Of a stretch of 44,988 nucleotides of DNA, positions 6,291-38,548 are shown one piece after another. The first letter of the stretch is position 1. The number at the start of each line of letters is the position of its first letter. The position numbers and the translations under genes are program-made. The stretch covers positions 1 to 44,988 of the forward strand of contig CAZXEZ010000001.1 in the NCBI GenBank assembly GCA_964640255.1, read 5' to 3'. Under the pieces are notes generated by a model. The model was not told the DNA's origin, ran no database searches, and saw only the letters and a list, made by a program, of their open reading frames with translations. This DNA comes from an uncultured Methanosarcinales archaeon (lineage in GTDB: Archaea > Nanobdellota > Nanobdellia > Woesearchaeales > ARS49).

Positions 6291-8191
6291 TTACCTCTTT
6301 CTAAAAGCAATGCAACTGGTTCTTCCTGAATTGCAGGATATCTCAATGAAGCATTTCTGAAGTCGTCTGTTATTGTTGCCAAAACACCATATCTTGACTG
6401 GCCTTTCCATTCAGTGACTCCTTGATGCATCCTAGGAACCATTGGAAGTGTTACATCCATTCCACTACCAGCCATGCAGAACTCCAGGTCAACAACCTCG
6501 TCAACACTCTTGCCGTCAATCTTGTCAGCAGAAGTGCTTACATTCGCTGTAATAACATGCTGTGTAGCTGTTGGAACAGTCAACTTTGCACCATACTTGT
6601 CAATGATTGGAACAGATGAGCCGTCAATGACTCCATCTCCATTCAGGTCTATTGCAATATTGCCTGTATTAACATCCACAATCACCTTGAATGAGGTGCC
6701 ACCCACAACAATGCTTGCTTCTCCAGTATTTGCATCATATGTTGCTTCTCTTGCACCTGTTGCAATATCTGTGAAGCTCAGTTTTCTGTTAACAGTGTCA
6801 ACGCTGTCATACTGTAGTATGCGCGTAAAATCAGTTGCACCTGTCAGGACAAACTGTGTTCCAGCAGTGATGCTATAATCAGTGCTGCTTGTTCCCTCTG
6901 TCATGACAAGCTTTTTCTGCAGAGCCCTGTCTGTGGCAGAAGTTCCAACATTCTCTATGAAATCTACAGCATTGTACGCTATGTTTTCCTTGTTTGTGAA
7001 AGTCAGTGTGTAGGAACTGTCAGTTGCAGTTGTTGCATAATTGAATTCTATACTAGAGTAAACTCTGTCAAGCAGATTTCCTTTGCCATCGTCTCTCTTT
7101 GGAGCAAGTCCATTAAAGCCAACACCAACTAAAGAAGCTCCTGGATTATCCAAATGGTCAGACAAGCTCTCTGTTGGTGGTACAAAGATGTCTGTGTCTG
7201 TCACAGAGTTAGCAAGCAATTCATAAGCAAGACTGTTAATTGTGATTTCAGAGCCGTTTACTGTTGCACTGATCCTTGCCCTGGCATCTGTGTCCTGCAG
7301 AAAATATCCAAAAATACCATTTCCACTTACAGTGCCTGAGAAATCAGCATCATTGACATCTGTGTCTGTGATACTAACTTTTTGTGCACCAATGCTAAAG
7401 GTTGCCTTGCTGTTTGAAGCATTTGCAGTTCCGATAAACTGACCATTAACTAAAACATCAAGTGCTCCTATGCTTAGATTATCTGTAATTTCACCATTAA
7501 CCTGCCATTTAGCGCTGTAAGTGCCATTTCCATTATCAGATGTGCTTACTAGCTTGACATCATAATCAACACCCTCAACACCTAAAATCATGGAATCACC
7601 AGCATTCAAGGTAGCTGTAACTTTACCTGTCATCAATTCCAGCTTAACCTCGTCAATCTCACTGCCCATCCACCGGGTCTTTGCTTTTGTAATCCTGTAG
7701 TTCTTTCCGCCAATGTTAAGGCTTTGCTGTAAAAGATCAATTAAATTTCCATTAGCATCAACACTAGATGTAAAACCATCCTGGAATTTCCAGTTCATTG
7801 TGTAAAGAACATCATCATGTGCTGCGTGCAGGAAAACACCAAGGTTTCCCAGATTATCTTTTGCAAATCTAGGGGTAAGTGTGCCAAAATCCATTGTTTG
7901 AGAAACAACAAGAGACTCGTTTCCTGCCTCTGTCATGATAGAATCATTAAGAAGATGAGGAAATCTATTCTTTGCAAGTGTTCCATAATGCTCAAATAAT
8001 GACTCGTTAAGCTCTAGTCTTGTTGAGTCAGAAACATAGTTTCCTTGATCGTCTACTGTTATTTGTGTATCACTGTCTTTAGAACATCCGCCGAATAAAA
8101 GTGTGGCTAATGCTGCTAGTCCTAATGTAGCTTTAACTGCTGTTTTTCTTATAAATCCTTGTTTTTTCTTCATTTTAGTCATCTCCCCCAT
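6287..8191 (-). CDS. cell-surface (S-layer-like) lipoprotein
   Basis: Signal peptide with lipobox-like LLFGGC. Long Thr/Ser/Asn/Asp-rich beta-type sequence and a DLNGDGVIDG Ca-binding-like motif. The real start may be MKKKQGF at 8173, which follows a GGGGGAG Shine-Dalgarno (SD) sequence. Confidence 0.7.
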   Translation of the reverse strand: MGEMTKMKKKQGFIRKTAVKATLGLAALATLLFGGCSKDSDTQITVDDQGNYVSDSTRLELNESLFEHYGTLAKNRFPHLLNDSIMTEAGNESLVVSQTMDFGTLTPRFAKDNLGNLGVFLHAAHDDVLYTMNWKFQDGFTSSVDANGNLIDLLQQSLNIGGKNYRITKAKTRWMGSEIDEVKLELMTGKVTATLNAGDSMILGVEGVDYDVKLVSTSDNGNGTYSAKWQVNGEITDNLSIGALDVLVNGQFIGTANASNSKATFSIGAQKVSITDTDVNDADFSGTVSGNGIFGYFLQDTDARARISATVNGSEITINSLAYELLANSVTDTDIFVPPTESLSDHLDNPGASLVGVGFNGLAPKRDDGKGNLLDRVYSSIEFNYATTATDSSYTLTFTNKENIAYNAVDFIENVGTSATDRALQKKLVMTEGTSSTDYSITAGTQFVLTGATDFTRILQYDSVDTVNRKLSFTDIATGAREATYDANTGEASIVVGGTSFKVIVDVNTGNIAIDLNGDGVIDGSSVPIIDKYGAKLTVPTATQHVITANVSTSADKIDGKSVDEVVDLEFCMAGSGMDVTLPMVPRMHQGVTEWKGQSRYGVLATITDDFRNASLRYPAIQEEPVALLLERGN

Positions 8192-9174: not shown

Positions 9175-9229
9175 TATGATGCGAAGTGATTGTATTCATT
9201 GTTAGTAGATGTAATTCTAATATTTTTTA
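9175..9229 (+). repeat. about 55-nt box, copy 2
   Basis: Same core TGATTGTATTCATTGT. Ends 1 nt before the truncated tRNA-His-like gene. Confidence 0.6.
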
Positions 9230-9230
9230 T

Positions 9231-9294
9231 GGCGGCAGTGGCGTAATGGCAGCGTACAGGACTGTGGCTCCTGTGGAGCGGGTTCGATTCCCAC
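9231..9294 (+). pseudogene. tRNA-His(GUG)-like gene lacking the 3' acceptor strand
   Basis: Has G-1, acceptor 5' strand GCGGCAG, D arm, a perfect anticodon stem CAGGA/TCCTG with loop CTGTGGC, and a TTCGATT T-loop. One mismatch in the T stem. No complement to the acceptor strand follows. Confidence 0.6.
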
Positions 9295-9413
9295 CTAACT
9301 TTGGAAAAGTTAGGATCAAAGGCGCTCCTTGTTCGAACTCAAGAAGCAACCTATATGATGTTTGCTCACGCAAACATGTATTTTACTCTTCTTTCGTTCT
9401 CACAATGTCACGC
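9295..9413 (+). repeat. 119-nt structured repeat, copy A
   Basis: Starts with hairpin CTAACTTT-GGA-AAAGTTAG and ends CACAATGTCACGC. Aligns along its full length with copies B and C. Confidence 0.8.
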
Positions 9414-9422
9414 AGTGACTAT

Positions 9423-9494
9423 GGCGGTAATGGTGTATTGGCAGCATATAAGACTGTGGATCTTATGGTGCGGGTTCGATTCCCGCTTGCCGCC
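9423..9494 (+). tRNA. tRNA-His (anticodon GUG) with encoded G-1
   Basis: Cloverleaf folded by hand. G-1 pairs with C73. Acceptor GCGGTAA/TTGCCGC, D stem GTGT/GCAT, anticodon stem TAAGA/TCTTA with loop CTGTGGA, T arm GCGGG-TTCGATT-CCCGC. No encoded CCA. Confidence 0.9.
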
Positions 9495-9613
9495 CTAACT
9501 TTAGAAAAGTTAGGATCAAAAGGCGCTCTTTGTTCAGGCTCCAGAAGCAATCCATCAGATGTTTTCTTCGAAAACATGGACTCAACTCTTCTCTCGCCTT
9601 CACAATGTCGCGC
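9495..9613 (+). repeat. 119-nt structured repeat, copy B
   Basis: Begins immediately after the tRNA-His discriminator base. Same architecture as copies A and C. Confidence 0.8.
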
Positions 9614-9626
9614 AAACGGTTCCGCC

Positions 9627-9658
9627 CTAACTTTAGAAAATGGAGAATCAAAGGGCGG
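9627..9658 (+). repeat. partial, degenerate 5' part of the 119-nt repeat
   Basis: CTAACTTTAGAAAATGGAGAATCAAAGGGCGG compared with CTAACTTTAGAAAAGTTAGGATCAAAAGGCGC. Preceded by GGTTCCGCC, which resembles a tRNA 3' remnant. Confidence 0.5.
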
Positions 9659-9673
9659 TATTTCTCAAAAAGA

Positions 9674-16937: not shown

Positions 16938-18113
16938 ATGAATAAATTTGAAAATTTTGGCCTGAGTCAGCCACAATTAATGACTATAAAAAAATTAGGA
17001 TTTACCGAACCAACCCAAATCCAGGAGCAATCCATCCCAGAAATAGTAAAGGGAAAGGATGTCGTAGGAGAATCAGCAACTGGTTCTGGGAAGACACTGG
17101 CTTTTGGGTGCGGTATCGCAGAGCATGTAGAGCCTGGAAAAGGCTTGCAAGCATTGGTTTTAGCACCTACAAGAGAGCTTGCAGAGCAGGTCAAATGCAT
17201 GCTAAAAGAGATTTCACAGCACAAAAATCTGAAAATAATCAGCATATATGGCGGAGTCTCTATCAATCCACAGATTCATGACCTGCCAAGAGCAGATGTA
17301 GTTGTAGCTACACCAGGAAGATTTTTAGACCACCTACAAAGGAGAACAGTAGATACCTCAAAAATCAAGATACTGGTCCTAGACGAAGCAGATCGTATGC
17401 TTGACATGGGATTTATCGATGATGTAGAGCAGATAATCAAGGTTTGTCCCAAGAAAAGGCAGACAATGTTTTTCTCTGCAACAATCTCATCCAGAATAAA
17501 AGAGCTGGCCAAAAGATACATGGCAAAGCAAATCAATGTATCTGCCAAAAGGCTGGTTGACCCTGCTAAACTTAGGCAGGTATACTACAATATCCTAAAA
17601 AACAAGAAATTGTCCCTGCTTGCACACCTGCTGCAGCACGAGAATTCAGGATTAGTTATGGTCTTCTGCAATTCAAGGAAAACCACAGATTTTGTTGTCA
17701 AGAATCTTAAGACGAATAAAATAAGCGCTATTTCGATTCATGGCGGCTTGTCACAGAACAAGCGAACAAAGACGATTAACCTATTCAATAATGCAAAGGT
17801 AGGGGTATTAGTCTGTACAGATGTTGCTGCACGAGGCCTGGATATCGACAATGTCTCTCATGTATATAACTATGAGATCCCTAAAGATCCAAAAGATTAT
17901 GTGCATAGAATAGGGAGAACAGCCAGAGCAGGAGAGGAAGGCATGGTAGTCAACTTACTGTGCGACTATGACCACGACCATTTCTCAAGGGTATTGAACG
18001 AGTACCGCTCATTCAATGTCAAGAACATGCAGACGCCTGTCATGAAGAGAATCGCAGTCAGAATGGAGAGGCAACCAAGAAGAATGCCTTTCCATAGACA
18101 GAGACGGAGATGA
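16938..18113 (+). CDS. DEAD-box ATP-dependent RNA helicase
   Basis: Q-motif region, motif I ATGSGKT, DEAD, SAT and HRIGRTARAG. GAGGT Shine-Dalgarno sequence 8 nt upstream. Long (about 300 nt) upstream non-coding region. Confidence 0.95.
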   Translation: MNKFENFGLSQPQLMTIKKLGFTEPTQIQEQSIPEIVKGKDVVGESATGSGKTLAFGCGIAEHVEPGKGLQALVLAPTRELAEQVKCMLKEISQHKNLKIISIYGGVSINPQIHDLPRADVVVATPGRFLDHLQRRTVDTSKIKILVLDEADRMLDMGFIDDVEQIIKVCPKKRQTMFFSATISSRIKELAKRYMAKQINVSAKRLVDPAKLRQVYYNILKNKKLSLLAHLLQHENSGLVMVFCNSRKTTDFVVKNLKTNKISAISIHGGLSQNKRTKTINLFNNAKVGVLVCTDVAARGLDIDNVSHVYNYEIPKDPKDYVHRIGRTARAGEEGMVVNLLCDYDHDHFSRVLNEYRSFNVKNMQTPVMKRIAVRMERQPRRMPFHRQRRR

Positions 18114-20918: not shown

Positions 20919-21983
20919 TCAAAGAGTTTCTATGCCCAACTCCTCATTAAAGTGCTTAGCTTGAGGGCTAGACCGGGTTGGGTCTGCTTTTCCAAGTATC
21001 CATGGTGACTGGACTCCTGTAACTATTGTCATAACCAAAAGCTTTCCCTTCATCTCTTCAGAGACTCTTGCTCCCCAGATTACGTTAGCGTCGTCATCCA
21101 TGCTCTCTGTGACCATCTCTCCTGCCCTGTTTATCTCATCCAAAGTTAAGTCTGGGCCTCCGCATATCTGAATCAATGCTCCTGTTGCCCCTTTGTAGCT
21201 GATGTCCAACAATGGGTTGCTTAATGCGCCTTTAACAGCTTCATCAACCCTGTTGTTTGTGTCAGAGCTGCCCACTCCAATAGCTGCAACTCCTCCATTT
21301 GTCATGATAGCTTTTACGTCTGCATAGTCCAGGTTAACCAAGCTTGGAACTGCGATTGTCTCGACAATTCCTTTTATCATGGTTGAAATCAGCTCATTTG
21401 CCACTGCAAATGCCTGTTGTACTGGCAAGTTGCCTGCAATGCAAACTAGCCTATTATTGTCAATAACGATAACTGTATCACAGACCTCTCTTAATTGCTG
21501 CAATCCAAATTCAGCCTTATCAATCCTTGCCCTCTCAATATTAAAAGGCATTGTCACTGTTCCAATAACAATTGCGCCCATCTCTTTAGCAACTGAAGCA
21601 ATAACTGGAGCAGCTCCTGTACCTGTGCCGCCTCCTTGTCCTGCACAGACAAATACCATGTCTGTGTTACGAAGAGACTCTTTTATCTGCAGCATGCTTT
21701 CCTGAGCAGCTTCTGCTCCTCTCTGCGGGTATCCGCCACAACCCAGCCCGCGTGTTAAATCGCGACCGATCAAGAACTTTCGATCTGCTGAAGAAATATC
21801 AATATGTTGCTTGTCTGTATTCACAGCGACGATTTCTGCCCCGCGAATACCTTTCTTGTATAACCAAGAAACCATGTTGTTACCAGCACCACCGACGCCA
21901 ATAACCTTAATATTTGCCTGTCCAAAATCAGCCTCTTGCTGGGCTGGTTCCTGCGCCATTGCGCTCTTTACAATAAAATCCAT
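20919..21983 (-). CDS. ftsZ: cell division GTPase FtsZ
   Basis: GVGGAGNNMV and the GGGTGTGAAPVIA tubulin signature. Start set at MDFIV, which has a GGAGGT SD sequence 9 nt upstream. The ORF track extends to 22022. Confidence 0.95.
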   Translation of the reverse strand: MDFIVKSAMAQEPAQQEADFGQANIKVIGVGGAGNNMVSWLYKKGIRGAEIVAVNTDKQHIDISSADRKFLIGRDLTRGLGCGGYPQRGAEAAQESMLQIKESLRNTDMVFVCAGQGGGTGTGAAPVIASVAKEMGAIVIGTVTMPFNIERARIDKAEFGLQQLREVCDTVIVIDNNRLVCIAGNLPVQQAFAVANELISTMIKGIVETIAVPSLVNLDYADVKAIMTNGGVAAIGVGSSDTNNRVDEAVKGALSNPLLDISYKGATGALIQICGGPDLTLDEINRAGEMVTESMDDDANVIWGARVSEEMKGKLLVMTIVTGVQSPWILGKADPTRSSPQAKHFNEELGIETL

Positions 21984-22382
21984 TTTCACTCGAACCTCCA
22001 CTTTGTGTCTTTGATTGTTCAAAAAGCATATCTCTTACTTTAGTGAGAGATTGTCTGGTTTATGCTGCCATTGGTTTTTGAACATTAAAAATGTCCTGTA
22101 TTTCAGTACGGGAATTTTTTATTTGTATGAAAGGGAAAAAAAGGCTCTCCAGGGTTTGTGGGTTTGGGGGGTGGTCTGTTTAGAGAAACAGTGGAGAGCC
22201 TTTGTTTCAGCATGACCATTTCTCAATCTTAGTATCCTAATATCATATTTTTGTATACTGATATAAACAATTACCAATTCATATATAAATGTTTCTATAT
22301 TTTTATATACTGGTGGCTATATGTCGGGATTTTCTATGACAGTATAGAAATCACAACATTTATATAGGGAATATTATTCTCT

Positions 22383-22823
22383 GTGAAATTAGGGGAGTGG
22401 TATAGAGAAAAGTGTGAGAGCATGGTAATCTTATTTGATCGGTTTAATTTATCGTCGGACATCTTTGAAATAATCTTTTCTACTGAGCAGCAGAAGATAG
22501 TCGCAAAAGAACTGATCAAATTTACCATCGAGAATACTGGAGAGATTACCAAGACACAGATGAGTTTTTTTGCAACGCAATTACATGATGGCAAGTACGA
22601 ATGTGTCTTAGATTCCGGAGTGCACAAGGGCAAGAAGGCAAAACTGAGCTACAACAAAAGACAATTCTACGACAGGATATTAACGCCGATGAAATCAATG
22701 GGCTTGATTGATTATGATCTTTACAAGAAAACGTACAAGATTTCTGATAAATTCTCAAATGACATGATGAAGATAGGCCTGATGTGGAAAGCTGAGTTAA
22801 GGAAGTTTGGTGTTAAGATATAA
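22383..22823 (+). CDS. hypothetical protein, probable winged-helix C-terminus
   Basis: 146 aa with GTG start. Its last 100 nt are duplicated at 23572..23671. Confidence 0.55.
   Translation: MKLGEWYREKCESMVILFDRFNLSSDIFEIIFSTEQQKIVAKELIKFTIENTGEITKTQMSFFATQLHDGKYECVLDSGVHKGKKAKLSYNKRQFYDRILTPMKSMGLIDYDLYKKTYKISDKFSNDMMKIGLMWKAELRKFGVKI
22720..22819 (+). repeat. 100-nt direct repeat, copy 1 (3' end of the 146-aa gene)
   Basis: 98/100 identical to 23572..23671. Both mismatches are synonymous third positions. Confidence 0.9.
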
Positions 22824-23153
22824 ATGACCAGCCCGCACGATAAACTGCTATACCAAGTTTCAGGGGCCATTTCCCGCATTTTTGATTTGTCATTTCTTAA
22901 AACAGCAGGATATGGGTCGAATCCTAGAAATATAGAGGATACTCTTGAGATAGACATGCTTGGCCAAAAAGGCAACATACTTTATGTATTCGAGGTAAAA
23001 ACAAACGAGAATGATACCTCTGAAGCGATAACACAGTTAAAAAACAGGCATTTAGGACTGAATTTGAACAAGGATAATATAGTCAATAAACAGAAGCAGC
23101 TGCCGCATTATGACTACATAAAATTGTTCATAGTGACTCCAAAGAATGTGTAG
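22824..23153 (+). CDS. small PD-(D/E)XK-like nuclease-fold protein
   Basis: EIDMLGQKGNILYVFEVKT fits D...(D/E)xK. The ATG directly follows the upstream TAA. Confidence 0.45.
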   Translation: MTSPHDKLLYQVSGAISRIFDLSFLKTAGYGSNPRNIEDTLEIDMLGQKGNILYVFEVKTNENDTSEAITQLKNRHLGLNLNKDNIVNKQKQLPHYDYIKLFIVTPKNV

Positions 23154-23263
23154 GAGATAAATGAAAAAGGCAGCCTTTTAAACAGGTGGCAGCTAGATAA
23201 AGTCATGAAAACCCCAGAAATAATCCAATAAGTTTAAATAGTTTAAAGACAGTAAAGAATAAC

Positions 23264-23569
23264 ATGAAATATCAAATCACAACCAAAAATAGAAAAGATT
23301 TTTTGGCATTACAGAACATATTAGATGATACCCTAAAAAATGGTGTTGTTGAAAGAACGATTCGTGGTGGTTTAATAACTCAGAACCAGGATAGTGCAAA
23401 AGTCACATATACTGGCCCAAACGTGTCTGCATATTTTGAGTTTGATAAGGTAAACGGCACATATGCTGGTGCTCTGGTTGTTGAGAAGGCACCAGAAGAG
23501 GCAGCAAATAAATTAGCTGCTAGAATAAAGAAAGAATTGCCTGCCCTAAAACCAGAAACTAAATCTTAG
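23264..23569 (+). CDS. hypothetical protein
   Basis: 101-aa ORF with a TTTAAATA box about 30 nt upstream. Confidence 0.5.
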   Translation: MKYQITTKNRKDFLALQNILDDTLKNGVVERTIRGGLITQNQDSAKVTYTGPNVSAYFEFDKVNGTYAGALVVEKAPEEAANKLAARIKKELPALKPETKS

Positions 23570-23571
23570 TT

Positions 23572-23671
23572 TTTACAAGAAAACATACAAGATTTCTGAT
23601 AAATTCTCAAATGACATGATGAAGATAGGCCTGATGTGGAAAGCTGAGTTAAGGAAGTTTGGGGTTAAGAT
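23572..23671 (+). repeat. 100-nt direct repeat, copy 2 (orphan gene 3' end)
   Basis: Encodes ...YKKTYKISDKFSNDMMKIGLMWKAELRKFGVKI followed by a stop, but has no 5' gene body. Confidence 0.9.
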
Positions 23672-23719
23672 TTAATATATTTCAAAAGGTTTAAATAGTT
23701 TCTTCACTAAGGATATTTT

Positions 23720-23956
23720 ATGGCAAAGATTCTTGAATCTGAATTAAGAGAAGAAAAAGTAAAACAAGCAGTAGACTTGTATTATGCTAGATTTGGTACT
23801 GAGGAGAGTGTTACTGTAAACGAAGCTGCGGCAAAATATGACATAAAAGGAATAGAAATTCATATGTATATTGCTGCAAGAACAGATGATGGTTTAGGAA
23901 TGCCTGAAACTCATGCAGAAGCAAAGAAATATCGTATTAATTTAATGCAATTATGA
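23720..23956 (+). CDS. hypothetical small protein
   Basis: 78-aa ORF with a TTTAAATA box about 25 nt upstream. Confidence 0.5.
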   Translation: MAKILESELREEKVKQAVDLYYARFGTEESVTVNEAAAKYDIKGIEIHMYIAARTDDGLGMPETHAEAKKYRINLMQL

Positions 23957-24446
23957 TAGTTTTCTAATTAATTCTTGTACATATGGCCGCCTAAAATTTA
24001 CTGCCAACAATTCATTCAAATATTTCAAAGAATCCTTTCTCGCAAACATTCCTTTTTCTTCTGCAATTTCGTATAAGTTTGCAATATCTCTTACTTGTCC
24101 GTGTCTGCCTAACTTGACTTCAGCCTCTTTATTAGCAAACAACATCTCATCTGCATCACTATAAAACTTGTGCGTGATCAATACTTCTATATCTGCCACA
24201 TCAGCTAATTCAAGTTTCTGAGACCACCTGCTGACTAATTTATCAAATCGCCTTTTTTCTTGTATAACCGCAGGAGGAATAATGAAATTATTTTGAACGA
24301 ATGTTTGATCTACTTGGAGAAATGTGACGATTTCACTAAGCGTTCCTGGAGACGTATAAACAGCATCGTATAAATCCCTAATTAAGTACAGTCTCCCAAT
24401 TTTGTCTAGCCATATTGCGGGGGGATGTATTAGATACGACTTTCAT
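23951..24446 (-). pseudogene. COG2405-type PIN-domain gene interrupted by a frameshift at a G6/C6 run
   Basis: The ATG at 24446 gives MKVVSNTSP, then a stop after 22 codons. The adjacent frame continues PAIWLDKIGRLYLIRDLYDAVYTSPGTLSEI...IIPPAVIQE... down to 23951. The frames switch at 24419..24424. Confidence 0.65.
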
Positions 24447-24470
24447 TTTATTAATTTAAAAGAATCAAAG

Positions 24471-24480
24471 TATTTAAAGA
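24471..24480 (-). promoter_or_regulatory. TATA box (TCTTTAAATA on minus strand)
   Basis: 25-34 nt upstream of the ATG at 24446. Confidence 0.45.
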
Positions 24481-24506
24481 TTATTATTTTTATTATTTAT
24501 GGGTGG

Positions 24507-24584
24507 TTATTTAGTCAAAACTTCTACCTTATCTGTAATCAACAGAGTATGTTCTGCCTGAGAGACCATTCCTTTGTTTTTCTC
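24507..24584 (-). repeat. orphan copy 'a' of the map gene 3' end (78 nt)
   Basis: Aligns with 28425..28499 of the live map gene, from the stop codon inward. Confidence 0.85.
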
Positions 24585-24664
24585 TGGTTAAACAAAAATT
24601 AACCACTATTAAGTGATTAAAAAACCAAAGATTTAAATACTCACGAATATTAACATGTAGCACC

Positions 24665-25435
24665 ATGAGCAAAGATGAATCAGTGGAATTTCAAACAAAG
24701 GAATTTCAAGAGGGTGAATTTAGACAAGTAATTGAAAGGTCTAAAGAATTGATAGCCAGAGGGTATTTTACCGGAATAAATTTTCTGCAATCAGAGGAGC
24801 CCCTGCCGACAAATTCAATAATCGTCCACTTTCTTCACGACAGCGAACAACATTTGGATGAAATCATATCCGCCGTGCCTGCTGCGCGTTTGGTAGTCCC
24901 TAGATTCACGTGCTACATGCTAAATCCTAAATATTTTCAAAAGCCCAATTTTGCTGAAGAATACCGAGATGTAGTTTTTTTCGATTCTAACTTTAATATA
25001 ATCACAGTTGAGGAGGCGATTGCAAAACCTTTGGGCGTGACAGTACTTAACCGAGAGTTGGATTTAATAGTCCCGCTTCACGGCAGTAAAGATTTATACG
25101 ATACTGTGCAAGCTTTGCAAGAGGCAGACAAAGAAGGCCCTTATCAGTGGATAGATCCGGTTCTTATTGTGAAAACAAAAACGCCTGTTACTGCTCTAGA
25201 AGGTTTTGTTGACAAACAGTATATTAGTATTGCAAAAGAAAGAGAAGAGTTTTATTCAATCTTAACCGACGAGGAAAGAACTGATGCCCTATCGAATTAT
25301 TTAGATAAATTGTGTGCAGCCACAAAAATAGGAACATTACAAAGAAGTGACGTTGTTTTCAATGCAAGCCAAGTAAACAAAAAGTTTGCAGATTTCTTAG
25401 TTAATATTCAGAACCAGCTTCGAATTCTTGAATAG
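24665..25435 (+). CDS. hypothetical protein
   Basis: 256-aa ORF with a TTTAAATA box about 25 nt upstream. No family recognised. Confidence 0.55.
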   Translation: MSKDESVEFQTKEFQEGEFRQVIERSKELIARGYFTGINFLQSEEPLPTNSIIVHFLHDSEQHLDEIISAVPAARLVVPRFTCYMLNPKYFQKPNFAEEYRDVVFFDSNFNIITVEEAIAKPLGVTVLNRELDLIVPLHGSKDLYDTVQALQEADKEGPYQWIDPVLIVKTKTPVTALEGFVDKQYISIAKEREEFYSILTDEERTDALSNYLDKLCAATKIGTLQRSDVVFNASQVNKKFADFLVNIQNQLRILE

Positions 25436-25718
25436 TTTCTCGCAATCTTTGTTTAGAATAAACACCTGTAAGTTTTTGAGAGCCTCCACCACGCACACCT
25501 TTTTCAAACGCCTCTTGTAATAGATTAACAACACCATTTTTATGTATGCGGCACTTATATTCTATTTCTCCCCAACCATATCGCCATTCACTAATACATC
25601 CGTCATCAGGTAATTCTGCAAGAACTTCAATTAATTTTGGTAGATTCTCCTGACTAATACAATCTAAACCTTCTATTTCTGGGTCTTCTGATGCTTTTCG
25701 CAATGTTTCTACTAACAT
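25401..25718 (-). CDS. hypothetical protein
   Basis: 105-aa ORF, convergent with and overlapping the 256-aa gene by 35 nt. Confidence 0.45.
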   Translation of the reverse strand: MLVETLRKASEDPEIEGLDCISQENLPKLIEVLAELPDDGCISEWRYGWGEIEYKCRIHKNGVVNLLQEAFEKGVRGGGSQKLTGVYSKQRLRETIQEFEAGSEY

Positions 25719-25790
25719 TTTCCTATGAATTATATGTCTCTAGAAGTATATAAATCTTTTGAAATAAATCTAGTAATATACGTAAAATAA

Positions 25791-26000
25791 CTAAATCTTA
25801 ATCAAAACTTCTACTTTATCTGTAATCAACAGAGTATGTTCTGCCTGTGAGACTATCCCTTTGTTTTTCTCGACTAAAGGAGGGAATTGCTTGATAATAT
25901 TGTTTTTCAGGAGTTCTCTCAATGCAAAATTAGTCTTGCCCAGGCCGAACTTTTTTGAGAGCCATCTTGTTGTGAATGGTAATGTCTTGTAGTTTTCGCC
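25791..26000 (-). pseudogene. orphan copy 'b' of the map gene 3' end (210 nt, 69 codons plus stop)
   Basis: Encodes GENYKTLPFTTRWLSKKFGLGKTNFALRELLKNNIIKQFPPLVEKNKGIVSQAEHTLLITDKVEVLIKI, colinear with the Map C-terminus. There is no gene body upstream. Confidence 0.9.
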
Positions 26001-27388
26001 TATGTCTGCGTTTCCCCAAAGCTTCAAAATCAGCTGAAATCCAATTCTTCTTCACTTAGCTGTTTTTGAACACTTCAAAACTGTTTCGTCATTTTCGAGT
26101 TTTAGAGCTTGTAGCCCTGAAATTCGAGCATTTCAGAGTTTTTACTCTCTAGTAAGTTTATGACGCTTTTTAGAAAATCCATCATAACTACTCCTTAATG
26201 ACGAAACCTTTATAAAGGATTACTGCCTTTAGCAAATCATTACCTTTAGAGGGGCGGAAAAATGACTGAAAACAAAAAAGAATCAGAAAATGAAGTAAGG
26301 CGCAGAGTATATCTTAAAAAGGCAATACAAGACTTTACTGAAGCAATTAGATTAAACCCAAAATATGATCAATATTATGTGAATCGCGGGATTGTTTATT
26401 CTAATCCACATGTTCGCGAGGTTATACAATATCTTAATCAGAATGGTCTAAGAGCAGAATTAAAAGACTCTGCACTTCAGGGAGATGATGTTGACATTCT
26501 TGCAACAGGAAGCCTTGAGGACATAACAGAAGTGACCTGTGCATTAAATGGAGCCAAGGATATTGCAGATCCATTCTACAGCACAGCTAGAGACAGTGAA
26601 GATTACACTGTTGTGCATGAAGGTGAAAATGTTGCTTACATGCGCGAGAATCTTGCACAGCTGTTCAAGATACTTGTCGGCGACACAAAAATTCATGTCG
26701 GATTGAAAACAAAGCCAAGTATTGATTAATTTTTTTTATTTCATATGCCTTGAAAAAGAGACCCTAAAATGCCGATGACAAAAACATTATGCGGAGTTCT
26801 GCACGATGAGGCAGACAAAGAGGAGATACAGCAAGTTCTAGATCTGATAGATAATACAAATCCCGCGAAAGTAGGATTAGAGATTACCAATAAATATGCA
26901 GAAACCAATCACTGCCCTGAATTTTTTGATAGGATACATGATTATGCAAGGACAAATGGAAGAAGGATAGTTCCTTTAGAGCACCAGCTTGCTCATGAAA
27001 AATACAGCATAGTAAACGCAGTTGTGCTGGTGCTTGAAGACAAGTTATCAAGGGAAAACCTTGAATTTTTGCTGCAGTACACTACAATTGAATTAAAAAA
27101 GAGATTCGCCTTAAAATCTTCACAAATACGCGCACTTGAAGAGAATCAAAAAACAACCAAACATGCACTCAAGCTGCTTGATAGTAATCCAACAAAAGAG
27201 GAAGCTATCAAATGGTATGAAGAAGCAGAAACTGAAAGAGAAAAACACATGTTAAACAGGATTCTGCGGCATAATCCAGATCTTGTTATTATTGGGGTCA
27301 AGCATGCAGAAGCAATAAAAGACAACCTGCAGGAGTATCAGTATATTTGCCTTGCAAAAAGAGATGCAGAAGGTATTTTTGAATCATA
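26001..27388. mobile_element. putative inserted cassette II (two genes)
   Basis: Bounded by map 3'-end fragments b and c. Confidence 0.45.
26262..26729 (+). CDS. hypothetical protein with one TPR-like repeat
   Basis: AIQDFTEAIRLNPKYDQYYVNRGIVY. TTTATAAA box upstream. Confidence 0.5.
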   Translation: MTENKKESENEVRRRVYLKKAIQDFTEAIRLNPKYDQYYVNRGIVYSNPHVREVIQYLNQNGLRAELKDSALQGDDVDILATGSLEDITEVTCALNGAKDIADPFYSTARDSEDYTVVHEGENVAYMRENLAQLFKILVGDTKIHVGLKTKPSID

Positions 27389-27389
27389 A
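26769..27389 (+). CDS. hypothetical protein
   Basis: 206-aa ORF. The stop abuts map fragment c. Confidence 0.5.
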   Translation: MPMTKTLCGVLHDEADKEEIQQVLDLIDNTNPAKVGLEITNKYAETNHCPEFFDRIHDYARTNGRRIVPLEHQLAHEKYSIVNAVVLVLEDKLSRENLEFLLQYTTIELKKRFALKSSQIRALEENQKTTKHALKLLDSNPTKEEAIKWYEEAETEREKHMLNRILRHNPDLVIIGVKHAEAIKDNLQEYQYICLAKRDAEGIFES

Positions 27390-27439
27390 TTTAGTTATTA
27401 CTTCCACCTTATCTGTAATCAACAGAGTATGTTCTGCCT
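27389..27439 (-). repeat. orphan copy 'c' of the map gene 3' end (about 51 nt)
   Basis: CTTCCACCTTATCTGTAATCAACAGAGTATGTTCTGCCT aligns with the live gene end. Contains a 5-nt diverged patch. Confidence 0.75.
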
Positions 27440-27862
27440 TTACTCCTCGACTAATGACGTTAAGAACTGGATAATCTTTGTTATTTCTTCCTTGTTTTTC
27501 TCATAAAAAGAGATATCAACTGCTTCACCGTAATAATGTAACAGGTTTCTTAAATAACTCATTTCTGAAATAAAATTAGCTTCAAACTCATTATCTGAAT
27601 GCTTTCGGTAAAAATAAGAGATAAGACATTGATGATTCTTTGATTTCAAGCCATGTTTTAGCAATAATGCCACAAGCAATTCCTTGATAATCTCATAATA
27701 ACCCTCAATGATAAAAGAAACATTATCTTGATTAACTTGCTGGATGTCAACAAATTTTCTTCTTTTAATGACTGTATCCAATATGGAACTGATCTTTTCC
27801 TTGTCAGGAGTCACAGTTCTGATAAATTGCCGCCTGCATTCGCCCCAATCCATCAAATTCAT
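27440..27862 (-). CDS. HEPN-domain protein (toxin candidate)
   Basis: 140-aa helical protein. YLRNLLHYYG resembles an R-x(n)-H HEPN motif. 4-nt overlap with the upstream nucleotidyltransferase gene. Confidence 0.55.
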   Translation of the reverse strand: MNLMDWGECRRQFIRTVTPDKEKISSILDTVIKRRKFVDIQQVNQDNVSFIIEGYYEIIKELLVALLLKHGLKSKNHQCLISYFYRKHSDNEFEANFISEMSYLRNLLHYYGEAVDISFYEKNKEEITKIIQFLTSLVEE

Positions 27863-28365
27863 CTTATTTTAAAAAACCCCGTAATCCTGATTCCGTTAAC
27901 CACATTATTAAATAAGTTGTCTGGCAAATTATTGATACTCTGTTCAGTAAAAAGCTGGATTTTGTGGCCCAATATCTTCTCAAATTTGGCCAAGTCCAAA
28001 TCCTGTTTCTTTAAGGCTTCAACAAACAAGTCAACATCACTTTCTTTAGCTGATTCGCCTTTCCTGAAACTGCCAAAAAGAATTATGCAGGACGGTCTTA
28101 ATTTCTCTGTTAAATACTCTATCAAACCGCTTTCAAATAACTCCTTAATATAAAAAAAGGTCTTTTCCGTTTTAAACAAAGCAGTACTGACTGCCTCGTT
28201 TTCTTTATTTACTCTTCTGCTTTTTTTAAGCTCTCTTAAATATTTATGAACAGTTGATTTTGGAATCCTTGTCTTTTTGGCTAGTTCCCGAACTGTAAAC
28301 TGCTTCTCAGGATACTCGTAAAAAATCCTTAGAATTTTGTCCAAATTATTGTACTTTAGTCCCAT
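27859..28365 (-). CDS. wHTH plus minimal nucleotidyltransferase (MNT, antitoxin candidate)
   Basis: LFGSFRKGESAKESDVDLFV fits GS...G....SD.DL. N-terminal FTVRELAKKTRIPKSTVHKYLRELK is an HTH. Confidence 0.7.
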   Translation of the reverse strand: MGLKYNNLDKILRIFYEYPEKQFTVRELAKKTRIPKSTVHKYLRELKKSRRVNKENEAVSTALFKTEKTFFYIKELFESGLIEYLTEKLRPSCIILFGSFRKGESAKESDVDLFVEALKKQDLDLAKFEKILGHKIQLFTEQSINNLPDNLFNNVVNGIRITGFFKIR

Positions 28366-28421
28366 TTTATGTCCTTAAGTCCCAATAAATGGATTAACTA
28401 TTTAAATGTTGTGCTTTTTCC

Positions 28422-29330
28422 TTAAGATTTAGTCAAAACTTCTACCTTATCTGTAATCAATAAAGTGTGCTCTGCCTGAGAGACTATCCCTTTGTTTTTC
28501 TCGACTAAAGGAGGGAATTGCTTGATAATGTTGTTTTTCAGGAGTTCTCTCAATGCAAAATTAGTCTTGCCTAAGCCGAATTTAGAGGATAACCATCTTG
28601 TTGTGAAAGGCAAGGTCTTGTAGTTCTCGCCGACAAACTTAAGTATTTCCCTGGCAAAAGGGCTTCTGACAGGCTTTGGGTTTGTGAGCATGAAGATGTT
28701 AGCTCTCTCTGACTCGTATATCATTCCTGCACCATCAGTTGCAAAAGGCTCGATAGCAATGCACATATTCTCCTCTATTTCAGTGTCATCGCCAGTGTCA
28801 AAATTAGGGATTGTTGGATCTGTGTGGATATCGTAATAATCCAATCCATGGCCGCTTAAATTCTTTATAGGCGAGAAACCATGACTAGAGATAGTCTCTT
28901 GGATGGTCTTTCCAATCTCTCCTAAAGTTGTTCCAATCTGAACAATCTTGATTGCATTATTCAGGGCCTCTCTAGAGGCTTTTACCAAATCAGAATATTT
29001 TCCGCTCAGATCAACTGTAAGAGCATTGTCTCCTATTGCTCCTTCAAAACAGGCACCAACATCCAGGCAGGCAACCTGATCCTCAAACACAATCTTATCG
29101 TCTGGATCTGCACAATAATGCGCAGCAATATGGTCGCAGGAAATCTGTGCAGGAAAAGCAGGTATTGCACCCAAGTCTACAATCTTTTTCTCTATCAAAT
29201 CAGAGACCTCTAGCAGAGTTGCGCCTTTCTTTATTAATCCTCCACCGTATTCAAGGGCCTGCGCTGCAATCTTCCCGGCTTTTTTCCATTTCTCTATGTC
29301 TTCTGGAGTTAACTCTGTTTCTTCTTCCAT
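28422..29330 (-). CDS. map: type 2 (archaeal) methionine aminopeptidase
   Basis: Pita-bread fold motifs (AHYCADPDD, LDVGA, HGL, IAIEPFAT) and the C-terminal winged-helix insert typical of MetAP2-type enzymes. Confidence 0.9.
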   Translation of the reverse strand: MEEETELTPEDIEKWKKAGKIAAQALEYGGGLIKKGATLLEVSDLIEKKIVDLGAIPAFPAQISCDHIAAHYCADPDDKIVFEDQVACLDVGACFEGAIGDNALTVDLSGKYSDLVKASREALNNAIKIVQIGTTLGEIGKTIQETISSHGFSPIKNLSGHGLDYYDIHTDPTIPNFDTGDDTEIEENMCIAIEPFATDGAGMIYESERANIFMLTNPKPVRSPFAREILKFVGENYKTLPFTTRWLSSKFGLGKTNFALRELLKNNIIKQFPPLVEKNKGIVSQAEHTLLITDKVEVLTKS

Positions 29331-30487: not shown

Positions 30488-31639
30488 ATGAACATATCCA
30501 ACATTCTAATGATAGGCTTCTTAATAGCACTCAGCCTGACTATATTGATCTTTAGAAAGAGATTTGTTTTCCAGAGCTTTGGGAAAATATTTTATTTCGG
30601 AATGTACAAGACAAAAGTAGGGCTGAAGCTGATGGACAGATGGTCTAAAAAATACCCAAGAATATTGACGAGGCTGTGCTATCTGTCAATAGTGATTGGA
30701 TTCTTGGGAATGATACTGGTAGTATTTGACCTGATAAAATCAGGATACCAGATATTGACTGGAACAAGCACATTATCAGTCGGACTGGTATTGCCTGTTC
30801 AGGCAAAAGGAGTGTTTTATGTCCCATTTATTTATTGGATAATCGCAATAGCAGTCATCGTTGTCATACACGAGTTTTCACATGGATTGATAGCAAGACT
30901 GCATAAAATAAAAGTAAGGAGCTCTGGAGTTGCATTCTTAGGAATCATTATACCATTAATACCTGCAGCATTTGTAGAGCCAGATGAAAAACAATTAAGA
31001 AAAGCATCCAGGTTCAAGCAATTAAGTGTCTATGCAGCAGGACCATTTGCAAACATTGTCTTTGGATTTCTATTCTTAGGAATATTTGCACTGATACTAA
31101 ACCCATTTGCAGCCTCTTTATACAATTTTGAGGGCGTAAAAGTAAATGATTTTATGGGTGCTGAAAGTCCTGCAGAGATAAGCGGCATGGCAACAGGAGA
31201 GATAATAACAGAGATAAATGATGCTGAGATAAAGAATACAGAGGATTTTCTTAAATCAATAGAAGATGCAGAGCCAGGAGATGTTGCAGAGATAAAGACC
31301 ACAGAAAAAAGTTATTCTGTTTTATTAGAGGAAGATCCAGCTGAGAAAGATGCATTCTTAGGAGTTTGGGTATCAACAGAGAAGACAATGAAAGACAAAA
31401 GTTTATTCTCTTATTTCATAATCTGGGTGACTGACTTGTTCTACTGGTTATTTTTATTGAACTTAGGAGTGGGGTTGTTTAACCTGGTTCCAATCGGGCC
31501 TATTGACGGTGGAAGAATGCTCCAGACAGTGCTTGAAAAAGTGATGCCTAATAAACGTGCAACAAGAGTGTGGCACACTGTGAGTGTTGTTGTGTTGATG
31601 ATTATCGTCAGTAATATTATTTATGCTTTTGTCGCTTAA
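30488..31639 (+). CDS. site-2 protease (M50 family) with PDZ-like insert
   Basis: HEFSHGLIA (HExxH) and NLVPIGPIDGGRM (NxxPxxxxDG). Multiple TM helices. Confidence 0.9.
   Translation: MNISNILMIGFLIALSLTILIFRKRFVFQSFGKIFYFGMYKTKVGLKLMDRWSKKYPRILTRLCYLSIVIGFLGMILVVFDLIKSGYQILTGTSTLSVGLVLPVQAKGVFYVPFIYWIIAIAVIVVIHEFSHGLIARLHKIKVRSSGVAFLGIIIPLIPAAFVEPDEKQLRKASRFKQLSVYAAGPFANIVFGFLFLGIFALILNPFAASLYNFEGVKVNDFMGAESPAEISGMATGEIITEINDAEIKNTEDFLKSIEDAEPGDVAEIKTTEKSYSVLLEEDPAEKDAFLGVWVSTEKTMKDKSLFSYFIIWVTDLFYWLFLLNLGVGLFNLVPIGPIDGGRMLQTVLEKVMPNKRATRVWHTVSVVVLMIIVSNIIYAFVA
31609..31637 (+). repeat. 29-nt direct repeat, copy 1 (last codons of the S2P gene)
   Basis: CAGTAATATTATTTATGCTTTTGTCGCTT, identical to 31764..31792. 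Confidence 0.9.
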
Positions 31640-31758
31640 GCGCGATATTGTGAAGGCGAGAGAAGAGTTGAACCCCTGTTTGCGAAGCAAACAGCTGACA
31701 GAATGCTTCTCGAGCCTGAACAAAGAGCGCCCTTTGATCCTAACTTTTTCAAAGTTAG
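31640..31758 (-). repeat. 119-nt structured repeat, copy C
   Basis: The reverse complement aligns end to end with copies A and B. It forms the core of the 126-nt insert 31638..31763. Confidence 0.8.
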
Positions 31759-31763
31759 ATTGA

Positions 31764-31792
31764 CAGTAATATTATTTATGCTTTTGTCGCTT
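31764..31792 (+). repeat. 29-nt direct repeat, copy 2
   Basis: Identical to the S2P gene end. Here it is followed by GA, giving the presumed ancestral TGA stop. Confidence 0.9.
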
Positions 31793-31865
31793 GAGTTCTC
31801 TTTCATAACATTTATATACAAGATGTTTCTATTCCCTAGTAACTTACTAGAGAAAGGTGATTTAA

Positions 31866-33656: not shown

Positions 33657-33957
33657 ATGTTTTTTTCTGTGCAGTGATAATACTCTATGTATAAAACTCA
33701 TTAATTAACCATATTGCAGATAATCACAATAGTGCTCTTAGTATATTATAACAGAAATTTATAACAGAAATGCTAAATATTAGTATTACTTGTCAGCATT
33801 TCTGAATATACCAACTGTGGATTACTATTTGATTATTTTGCACAGTTATTATATATACACAATATATATACACAAGCACAGGTATTTATGCTGAAATCAG
33901 CGAAAATTGGAAATTTAAAAAAAGTTCTAAATTCGTTAAAAAAACATTTTTTTTAAC

Positions 33958-33972
33958 GAAAAGTTTATATAT
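33958..33972 (+). promoter_or_regulatory. BRE/TATA-like 15-mer GAAAAGTTTATATAT
   Basis: Lies 38 nt upstream of the ATG at 34010. The identical 15-mer precedes the second giant gene. Confidence 0.5.
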
Positions 33973-38485: not shown

Positions 38486-38533
38486 GATACAGGCTCTCTA
38501 AAAGACTTCTAGGGGAAAACTCTGTATTTAAAA

Positions 38534-38548
38534 GAAAAGTTTATATAT
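38534..38548 (+). promoter_or_regulatory. BRE/TATA-like 15-mer GAAAAGTTTATATAT
   Basis: Identical to 33958..33972. Lies about 95 nt upstream of the ATG at 38644. Confidence 0.45.

Follow-up and report, generated by a model that had tools for sequence, protein, structure and literature searches.

The chromosomal stretch analysed here, 44,988 nt of contig CAZXEZ010000001.1 (assembly GCA_964640255.1; hereafter the window) from a Woesearchaeota (DPANN) archaeon, carries an array of five two-gene cassettes packed into 5.6 kb between two convergent genes, g133, encoding a conserved hypothetical protein, and map, encoding a type II methionine aminopeptidase. Displaced copies of the 3′ ends of both genes lie between the cassettes in the order g133, cassette A, g133 remnant, cassette B, map remnant, cassette C, map remnant, cassette D, map remnant, cassette E, map. 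The single g133 remnant and the three map remnants (56, 81 and 210 nt) are each gene-distal to their cassette, and all reach the stop region of the gene that they copy. An original prediction made from the sequence alone had described a two-gene insert behind g133, bounded by a duplication of that gene's 3′ end, and had seen the same architecture at map; three displaced map 3′ ends are indeed present, the interpretation of the locus is supported, and the g133 and map loci are one island between two convergent genes. We favour, with a probability of about one in two, the reading that this array formed by recombinational accretion of cassettes inside conserved gene tails.

The functional 3′ end of g133, TAA included (copy G1, 22720–22823, plus strand), recurs downstream as a displaced copy that is out of frame with the preceding cassette gene g101 (copy G2, 23572–23675, plus strand), with 101 of 104 nt identical. 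The repeat had been given as 100 nt with 98 matches (22720–22819 against 23572–23671), which is correct for that span, but it continues for a further 4 nt through the stop codon and takes in a third difference, ATA/ATT (Ile), beside ACG/ACA and GGT/GGG. Synonymy at third codon positions, claimed for two differences, holds for all three, and translation of both copies ends in LRKFGVKI followed by TAA, leaving the host gene intact as proposed. The insert does begin at the TAA/ATG boundary, its first codon directly abutting the stop of g133, but once the repeat is extended its length is 748 nt (22824–23571) instead of 752, with a start-to-start spacing of 852 nt between the repeats. Because two-copy families expected by chance in the same 45-kb scan reach only ~30–34 nt at 70–79% identity, a repeat of 104 nt is far beyond chance.

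Junctions were checked in public Logan metagenome contigs from independent runs of several studies dated 2016–2024 (run contigs are labelled X1–X9, and loci or contigs of relatives L001–L088). The junction from gene to insert was found in X1, X2, X5 and X6, in JGI contig L081 and in the related contigs L083–L085; that from insert to second copy in X3 (23365–23615, 0 differences) and X9 (23442–23608); and that from second copy to downstream DNA in X1, X2 and X5. All three are thus present in independent Logan contigs, providing the spanning support on which the prediction hinged, and the repeat–insert–repeat structure is confirmed as real. An assembly artefact, with two strain variants concatenated through a common 100-nt sequence, might be suspected in a metagenome contig such as the window, and the Logan contigs are of low depth (2–6×) and break at repeats; yet the recurrence of all three junctions, with copy-specific variants, across different runs and studies, and of the left junction in a relative at ~83% identity, makes such an artefact scarcely credible.

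Relatives reveal the site as it was before insertion. The gene order across 80 species-level loci is ftsZ(−), g133(+), map(−), g237(−), S2P(+), and 23 of the 80 carry g133 and a complete convergent map inside the fetched stretch. In 8 of those 23 the two genes overlap or nearly touch, by 11 nt in L003, L005 and L046 and by 4 nt in L007 and L017, with a gap of 0 in L020 and L027 and of 8 nt in L011, and these eight are empty target sites for g133/map. Six further loci have 0.4–1.1 kb between the genes, and the window has 5,598 nt. The proposed insertion is thus upheld by relatives in which g133 and map abut or overlap, and the window retains a relic of the ancestral g133/map overlap: the end of G2, TTAAGATTTA, is the reverse complement of the window's map end. 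With ancestral stop regions that overlap, any insertion must duplicate or replace gene-end sequence for both genes to stay intact. A simple local tandem duplication followed by deletion, raised earlier as the explanation that would undo the claim, is inadequate because the cassette DNA is foreign and absent from the closest relatives. Large g133–map ‘islands’ in the distant loci L019, L026, L033 and L038 were rejected as cassettes, as they hold housekeeping genes (gyrB, S3Ae, RIO kinase) and represent a different synteny.

Within the array, cassette A (22824–23571, plus strand) is the 748-nt insert with g109 and g101. Cassette B (23676–24506), with g78 (23720–23956, plus) and g82 (23951–24199, minus), lies between the outermost g133 and the outermost map remnants. 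Then follow map remnant c4 (24507–24584, minus; the last ~81 nt of map at 92% identity), cassette C (24585–25793; g256 at 24665–25435, plus, and g105 at 25401–25718, minus), remnant c3 (25794–26003, minus; the last ~210 nt at 90%, mosaic), cassette D (26004–27385; the TPR gene g155 at 26262–26729 and g206 at 26769–27389, both plus) and remnant c2 (27386–27439, minus; the last ~56 nt at 84%), which abuts the stop codon of the HEPN gene of cassette E (27440–28421, minus). The intact map gene occupies 28422–29330 on the minus strand, convergent with g133, and matches Pfam Peptidase_M24 and TIGR00501 (E = 4.7e-94). Read from the map side, the remnants of ~56, 210 and 81 nt come directly after cassettes E, D and C, respectively. 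Cassette E consists of a HEPN gene (27440–27862) and a gene for an MNT nucleotidyltransferase with a winged helix-turn-helix domain (27859–28365), overlapping by 4 nt. Its Pfam matches are NTP_transf_2 (1.3e-7), Polbeta (4.2e-8) and the winged helix-turn-helix for MNT, with a weak match for HEPN (0.0058) and PADLOC as further evidence. From these matches and from the adjacency and overlap of its two genes, cassette E qualifies as a HEPN–MNT pair of the type II toxin–antitoxin kind.

The same gene-tail architecture occurs at an unrelated gene, that for an S2P (M50) protease, where the last 37 nt (plus strand) are duplicated at 31604–31640 and 31759–31795 around a 118-nt element, el (31641–31758). 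The insert is noncoding and structured, and starts right after the stop codon; L001 is an empty site for it, its S2P gene end aligning with the second copy, TGA stop included. Here el lies on the minus strand. Elsewhere in the window el (~120 nt) also lies behind each of two tRNA-His copies that stand in tandem a short way upstream of hisS (9228–9663), and a third, partial copy follows. Seven compensatory base pairs occur among three copies of el, and the first tRNA-His copy is without its 3′ acceptor strand, scoring 39.6 bits against 62.8 for the second. Searches of Rfam returned no match for el or for the gene-tail repeats, and IMG/VR gave no match to the el core and no g133 fragments that might represent an attP on a virus or plasmid.

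At least some cassettes are much younger at this site than the genes around them. At four-fold degenerate sites the window and L002, a metagenome-assembled genome from the Yap Trench, are 47–62% identical in ftsZ, g133, map and g237 but 79–90% identical in hepn, mnt, g256 and g105 (79–82% for cassette C and 82–90% for cassette E), and over whole cassettes nucleotide identity is 89–92% (C 89%, L002 13321–14701; E 92%) compared with 77–81% for core genes. As cassette identity lies so far above core-gene identity, cassettes C and E move horizontally and were exchanged long after the lineages split. In X2 and X4, contigs part from the window sequence at 28418, the outer boundary of cassette E, and X2 contigs do so also at 27478, at or near an end of the HEPN–MNT cassette, which suggests that coexisting populations carry this cassette in a different context.

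What travels seems to be more than the cassette. Self-searches of each island found map remnants in L002 (three) and L004 (one) only, and among these c4 corresponds to L002 remnant r2, and c2 to r3, each pair agreeing in its first base and in its cassette flank. Since these cassette–remnant junctions are common to the window and L002, a cassette and its distal remnant behave as one unit. The 3′ boundaries of the repeats are constant, in the stop region; the 5′ boundaries vary (−56, −81 and −210 in map; −104 in g133 of the window and ~−50 in L084), each being conserved per cassette across genomes. Remnant interiors match their own host's map end (90–93%) better than the counterpart remnant of the other genome (74–76%). 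Differences between map and c3 are mosaic, with 13 in −205 to −151, 1 in −150 to −59 and 11 in −58 to −1, and c2, c3 and c4 have in common four synonymous states (−49, −46, −42 and −40) that are missing from the functional map end and fall in the 56-nt span tied to cassette E. These mosaic differences and common states indicate that the copies recombined with one another or underwent gene conversion and that the functional tail was replaced; simple decay of a one-off duplication does not account for them. The codon-position bias of the differences between map and c3 (5, 3 and 16) was rejected as proof of two functional origins, as one constrained and one neutral copy fit it equally well.

That last pattern, the host-like remnant interiors (though the cassettes are common to both genomes) and the S2P case, whose 118-nt insert and 37-nt duplication are awkward for a circular intermediate, would all suit a long target-site duplication, in which DNA is captured at two single-strand breaks 37–210 nt apart near the stop codon and fill-in duplicates the tail, whether by transposition-like, casposase/Cas1-like or end-joining machinery. 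Boundaries and junctions identical between the window and L002, however, imply that the duplications arose a single time and have since moved or persisted together with the cassette, and neither the derived synonymous states common to c2, c3 and c4 nor the clustered or mosaic differences sit well with fill-in. Terminal inverted repeats were found at no cassette end, cassette A included, an inverted-repeat scan of 22700–28500 gave no conserved palindromes or attC-like sites at the cassette ends, and Pfam showed no transposase or Cas1. To our knowledge, no known prokaryotic system makes duplications so long and so variable, and we regard this explanation as doubtful.

Under recombinational accretion, incoming DNA would carry its own copy of a gene tail, joined to a cassette right after the stop codon. 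A single Campbell-type crossover in the tail would rebuild the gene to its stop, place the cassette behind it and push the older tail downstream as a remnant, and repeated events would stack cassettes in the zero-length ancestral junction of g133 and map. The direct repeats would keep recombining, by gene conversion and probably loop-out, releasing cassette-plus-tail units for transfer. Strand exchange could be performed by host homologous recombination or by an integrase acting in trans, and we lean slightly towards a homology-driven process; the intermediate would presumably be circular or otherwise carry the tail.

Several observations weigh against this scheme. Pfam identified no integrase, transposase, Cas1 or other recombinase among the 56 open reading frames (ORFs) of the window or the 29 ORFs of the L001, L002, L004 and L006 islands; several ORFs match no Pfam family at all, so a novel enzyme is conceivable. 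The g133-tail duplication is absent from all 80 loci of other GTDB species, leaving the window alone (1 of 81), and the long g133 remnant is likewise confined to it. No circular or excised form was demonstrated. The sole candidate, an X7 contig that runs from 23663 back by 852 nt to 22812, does not discriminate and was rejected as evidence for a circle, as its depth is 2.7, the alternative branches have no coverage and mis-threading at k = 31 through an 86-nt identical stretch fits equally well. Repeat lengths of 37–210 nt are unusual for a single site-specific system, the S2P unit of 155 nt is very small for a double-stranded circle, and the host-like repeat interiors require either that crossovers fell close to the 5′ edge or that gene conversion came afterwards. 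For cassette A, moreover, identity to L083 at four-fold sites (61–63%) equals that of the core (60–64%), and recent mobility of its own is unsupported.

Close relatives of cassette A occur only in contigs of a related organism (Logan L083–L085 and ENA L082), with 81–84% nucleotide identity. In L083–L085 it again lies behind g133 with the same stop-plus-ATG junction, and its right boundary (23570/23571) is common to L082–L085. The right flank in L083–L085 consists of a ~70-nt map remnant, a degenerate 46-nt g133 remnant (score 46; 500 shuffles reached no more than 26) and another cassette. An order of map before g133, the reverse of the native one, is that expected from a circularised or unequally joined segment with both gene ends. 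The cassette is missing from L001, L003 and others, and the host gene does occur without its insert in relatives, the comparison that the prediction had called for; judged by ftsZ, the window is no more distant from L001 than from L083, and L003 is about equally close. Cassette A is therefore old at this site and patchily distributed.

The reversed remnant order would also follow from a further explanation, in which two alleles of the locus that differ in their cassette recombined unequally or illegitimately, on sister chromosomes or after uptake of DNA from another strain. A single non-homologous join would set the alleles in tandem, equivalent to the larger duplication plus deletion considered in the original prediction, and in L083–L085 it would lie inside map of one allele and g133 of another; in the window it would fall 2 nt past cassette A (TT), at −104 of g133. 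The whole array would nevertheless demand ~5 independent illegitimate joins, all within 2 nt of a cassette end and all leaving every cassette and core gene intact, and such joins explain neither the much younger age of cassettes C and E, relative to the core genes common to L002, nor the S2P/el case. We consider them quite unlikely.

The first gene of cassette A, g109 (22824–23153, plus), starts directly at the stop of g133 (TAAATG). A small gene is present here as predicted, but its length of 109 aa reflects a nonsense allele of a 135-aa YraN-like, putative PD-(D/E)XK protein (read-through to 23231): position 23151 is T (TAG, 109 aa) in the window, X1, X3 and X6 and C (CAG, 135 aa) in X2, X4 and X7. 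Full-length homologues of the 135-aa form (g135) exist, and the L084 copy is also truncated. Its assignment as PD-(D/E)XK-like is plausible, based on a D…ExK core (D44 and E57-V-K59, with E57 invariant in 6 of 6 homologues and ELG in one distant member) and on weak but consistent profile matches to PADLOC CARF_PDDEXK (E = 1.4e-5), Pfam PDDEXK_9 (E = 0.056) and NCBIfam YraN (E = 4.8e-5; 23 bits, below the cutoff of 111). An AlphaFold 2 model of g135 is of low confidence (mean predicted local distance difference test score 65), and Foldseek returned no match to it below E = 0.03; the weak list includes nuclease-containing Hjc, RecU, McrBC, R2 and CidB.

The second gene, g101 (23264–23569, plus), encodes a conserved ~100-aa partner of the nuclease-like gene and has its own TATA-like box, TTTAAATA, at 23234–23241. 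The start of g109 at TAAATG and its lack of a promoter-like box make co-transcription with g133 probable, and the two genes are read as translationally coupled. Both genes are near-orphans in homologue searches, a metagenome scan returning the same strain only and viral contigs none. The pair is conserved in L083–L085, L086 and L087/L088 at 32–86% identity. In L083–L085 it has a different right flank, beginning with the map remnant; the distant g135/g100 pairs of L086 and L087/L088 (31–45% identity in both partners) lie in other contexts without gene-tail repeats, the only match there being a weak one (35 nt, 71%) judged to be chance. A conserved, fast-evolving and often broken nuclease-like gene with a small conserved partner suggests, by analogy with HEPN–MNT, a toxin–antitoxin-like or defence-type selfish module, and not the insertion machinery.

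The position of a nuclease-like gene, with its PD-(D/E)XK-type core, immediately after highly conserved DNA (the repeat begins inside the YDLYKKTYK motif) might also suggest spread in the manner of a homing endonuclease, whereby the cassette A protein cuts cassette-free g133 and repair copies the cassette in. Double-strand-break repair makes no target duplication, however, and one is present here; the architecture recurs at the four other cassettes and at the 118-nt element, none of which has a nuclease gene; neither the window strain, where it is broken, nor L084, where it is truncated, has an intact nuclease-like gene; and homologous pairs elsewhere are free of gene-tail repeats. Homing is accordingly very unlikely.

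Two further observations concern the ends of cassette A and its contigs. An 11-nt match of its right end (ACTAAATCTTA) to the map sense end was rejected, as 5 matches with at most 1 mismatch compare with 1.8 expected and 4 of 100 shuffles do equally well. JGI contig L081 (Ga0111034_1080124) is identical to window 20972–23144 and then ends in 116 nt of unrelated, G+C-richer sequence (2174–2289), probably a chimeric contig end.

The locus belongs with integrative islands bounded by copies of target-gene 3′ ends, from which an integrase-free array of small cassettes differs. Integrase-less units with att-type gene-tail repeats, in tandem beside an intact gene, are reportedly found among cis-mobilizable elements at the 3′ end of streptococcal fda and in the ssrA islands of Dehalococcoides; their repeats are said to be ~20–30 bp, with a neighbouring element supplying the integrase in cis, whereas no such neighbour is present here. 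In archaea, integrated mobile genetic elements of Thaumarchaeota insert in 3′-distal regions of protein genes, with att repeats of a median ~45 bp (PMC6563490). Such 3′-distal integrase elements, in archaea (PMC6563490) as in bacteria, likewise have direct repeats of the target tail, a gene rebuilt with its stop, empty sites and re-use of the site into arrays; they carry their own tyrosine recombinase and short att repeats and range in length from kilobases to tens of kilobases, whereas the units here are 0.12–1.4 kb with one or two cargo genes, no recognisable recombinase gene and repeats of 37–210 nt. Measured against elements of this kind, g133, map and S2P show tail direct repeats with the gene restored, and empty sites are known, but an integrase gene was not found.

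The tycheposon islands of Prochlorococcus are similar in that successive integrations at single sites of streamlined genomes push older elements inward, with partial target-gene copies between elements and scattered integrase-less remnants (bioRxiv 10.1101/2020.12.28.424599). Tycheposons target tRNA or tmRNA genes, and complete elements have tyrosine recombinases, in contrast to the convergent protein genes and S2P used here, where no complete element was seen. Int-pTN3, a homology-dependent tyrosine recombinase from Thermococcus with low sequence specificity, recombines any homologous pair as short as ~100–104 bp (PMC5495485). Such an enzyme could make and resolve structures of this kind without a fixed att site; it has been shown for inversions and integrations in Thermococcales, not for cassette arrays, and the window contains no gene for an integrase of this type. 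The microcin H47 island of Escherichia coli is likewise small, bounded by direct repeats and reported to be mobile without an encoded site-specific recombinase, but it is bacterial, has short repeats that are not gene tails and forms no array (PMC3191183, PMC5426353).

Integron arrays also resemble the locus in their one- or two-gene cassettes, some promoterless, in toxin–antitoxin cargo and in expression of the first cassette from upstream (here g109, at TAAATG); integrons have IntI, attI and attC palindromes, whereas none of these was found here and the boundaries are copies of host gene tails. DNA transposons and casposons have terminal inverted repeats, a transposase or Cas1 and fixed short duplications, none of which was found in an array with duplications of 37–210 nt. 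Free-standing homing endonucleases, with an intact enzyme and no target duplication, also differ from this locus, where a duplication is present and the gene is broken.

Little is known of how DPANN archaea, with their tiny and tightly packed genomes, gain accessory and defence-type genes. The locus offers a concrete route: cassettes pile up between a pair of essential genes that normally overlap at their ends, duplicated tails keep both genes intact, and at least two of the cassettes changed lineage long after the core genes had diverged. Should the mechanism prove homology-driven, or rely on a recombinase acting in trans, it would account for ‘additive’ islands that lack an integrase in streamlined genomes and would provide a simple metagenome signature for them, a gene tail that is displaced and ends in a stop codon. 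A bolder and, in our view, speculative possibility is that this clade has a dedicated and previously undescribed means of adding DNA, independent of any integrase encoded by the element, that takes the ends of conserved genes as landing pads and duplicates their final 40–200 nt through the stop codon, for coding cassettes and for the 118-nt el alike. Such a system would be a gene-tail counterpart of the integron, operating through a trans-acting recombinase or a homology-dependent integrase of the Int-pTN3 type.

The host gene g133 (22422–22823, plus) encodes a core hypothetical protein of Woesearchaeota. It lies upstream of the insert as predicted, but its length is most likely 133 aa, from ATG at 22422, and not the 146 aa of the ORF lister (GTG at 22383), as nearly all of 3,952 homologues (75–88% identical) have the shorter length. 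Named homologues are annotated as hypothetical proteins of Woesearchaeota or Nanoarchaeota, and searches of Pfam, NCBIfam and the PDB gave no match, and hence no family or structure assignment. The start of the repeat falls inside the invariant YDLYKKTYK motif. Upstream, in runs X4 and X5, 120 nt of the ftsZ–g133 intergenic region (window 22016–22137) are replaced by 12 nt (TGTATGAAAGGG).

Related islands add further detail. In L006, the first genes behind g133 (7386–7951) are a MazF/PemK-like toxin and a MazE/AbrB-like antitoxin, without detectable gene-tail repeats; here again a toxin–antitoxin pair occupies this hot spot. Homologues of g206 of cassette D (63–64% amino acid identity) lie between map and g237 in L001 (15328–15939) and L003 (12557–13182). 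In L002 (the Yap200 metagenome-assembled genome), the map ORF is 4 codons longer and extends into the promoter-side end of the HEPN–MNT cassette (17012–17027, ending in ILTKNTTFK and a stop), so that the cassette supplies the last codons and stop of map.

Beyond the island, the window contains pyrB/pyrI, hisS, a DEAD-box helicase gene, ftsZ, map, the S2P protease gene and genes for giant surface proteins. A 33-nt promoter-like sequence occurs both upstream and downstream of a repeat-rich gene of 1,491 aa (33940–33972 and 38516–38548, 79% identical), and a second giant ORF of >2,100 aa with a subtilase domain extends from ~38644 past the end of the window.

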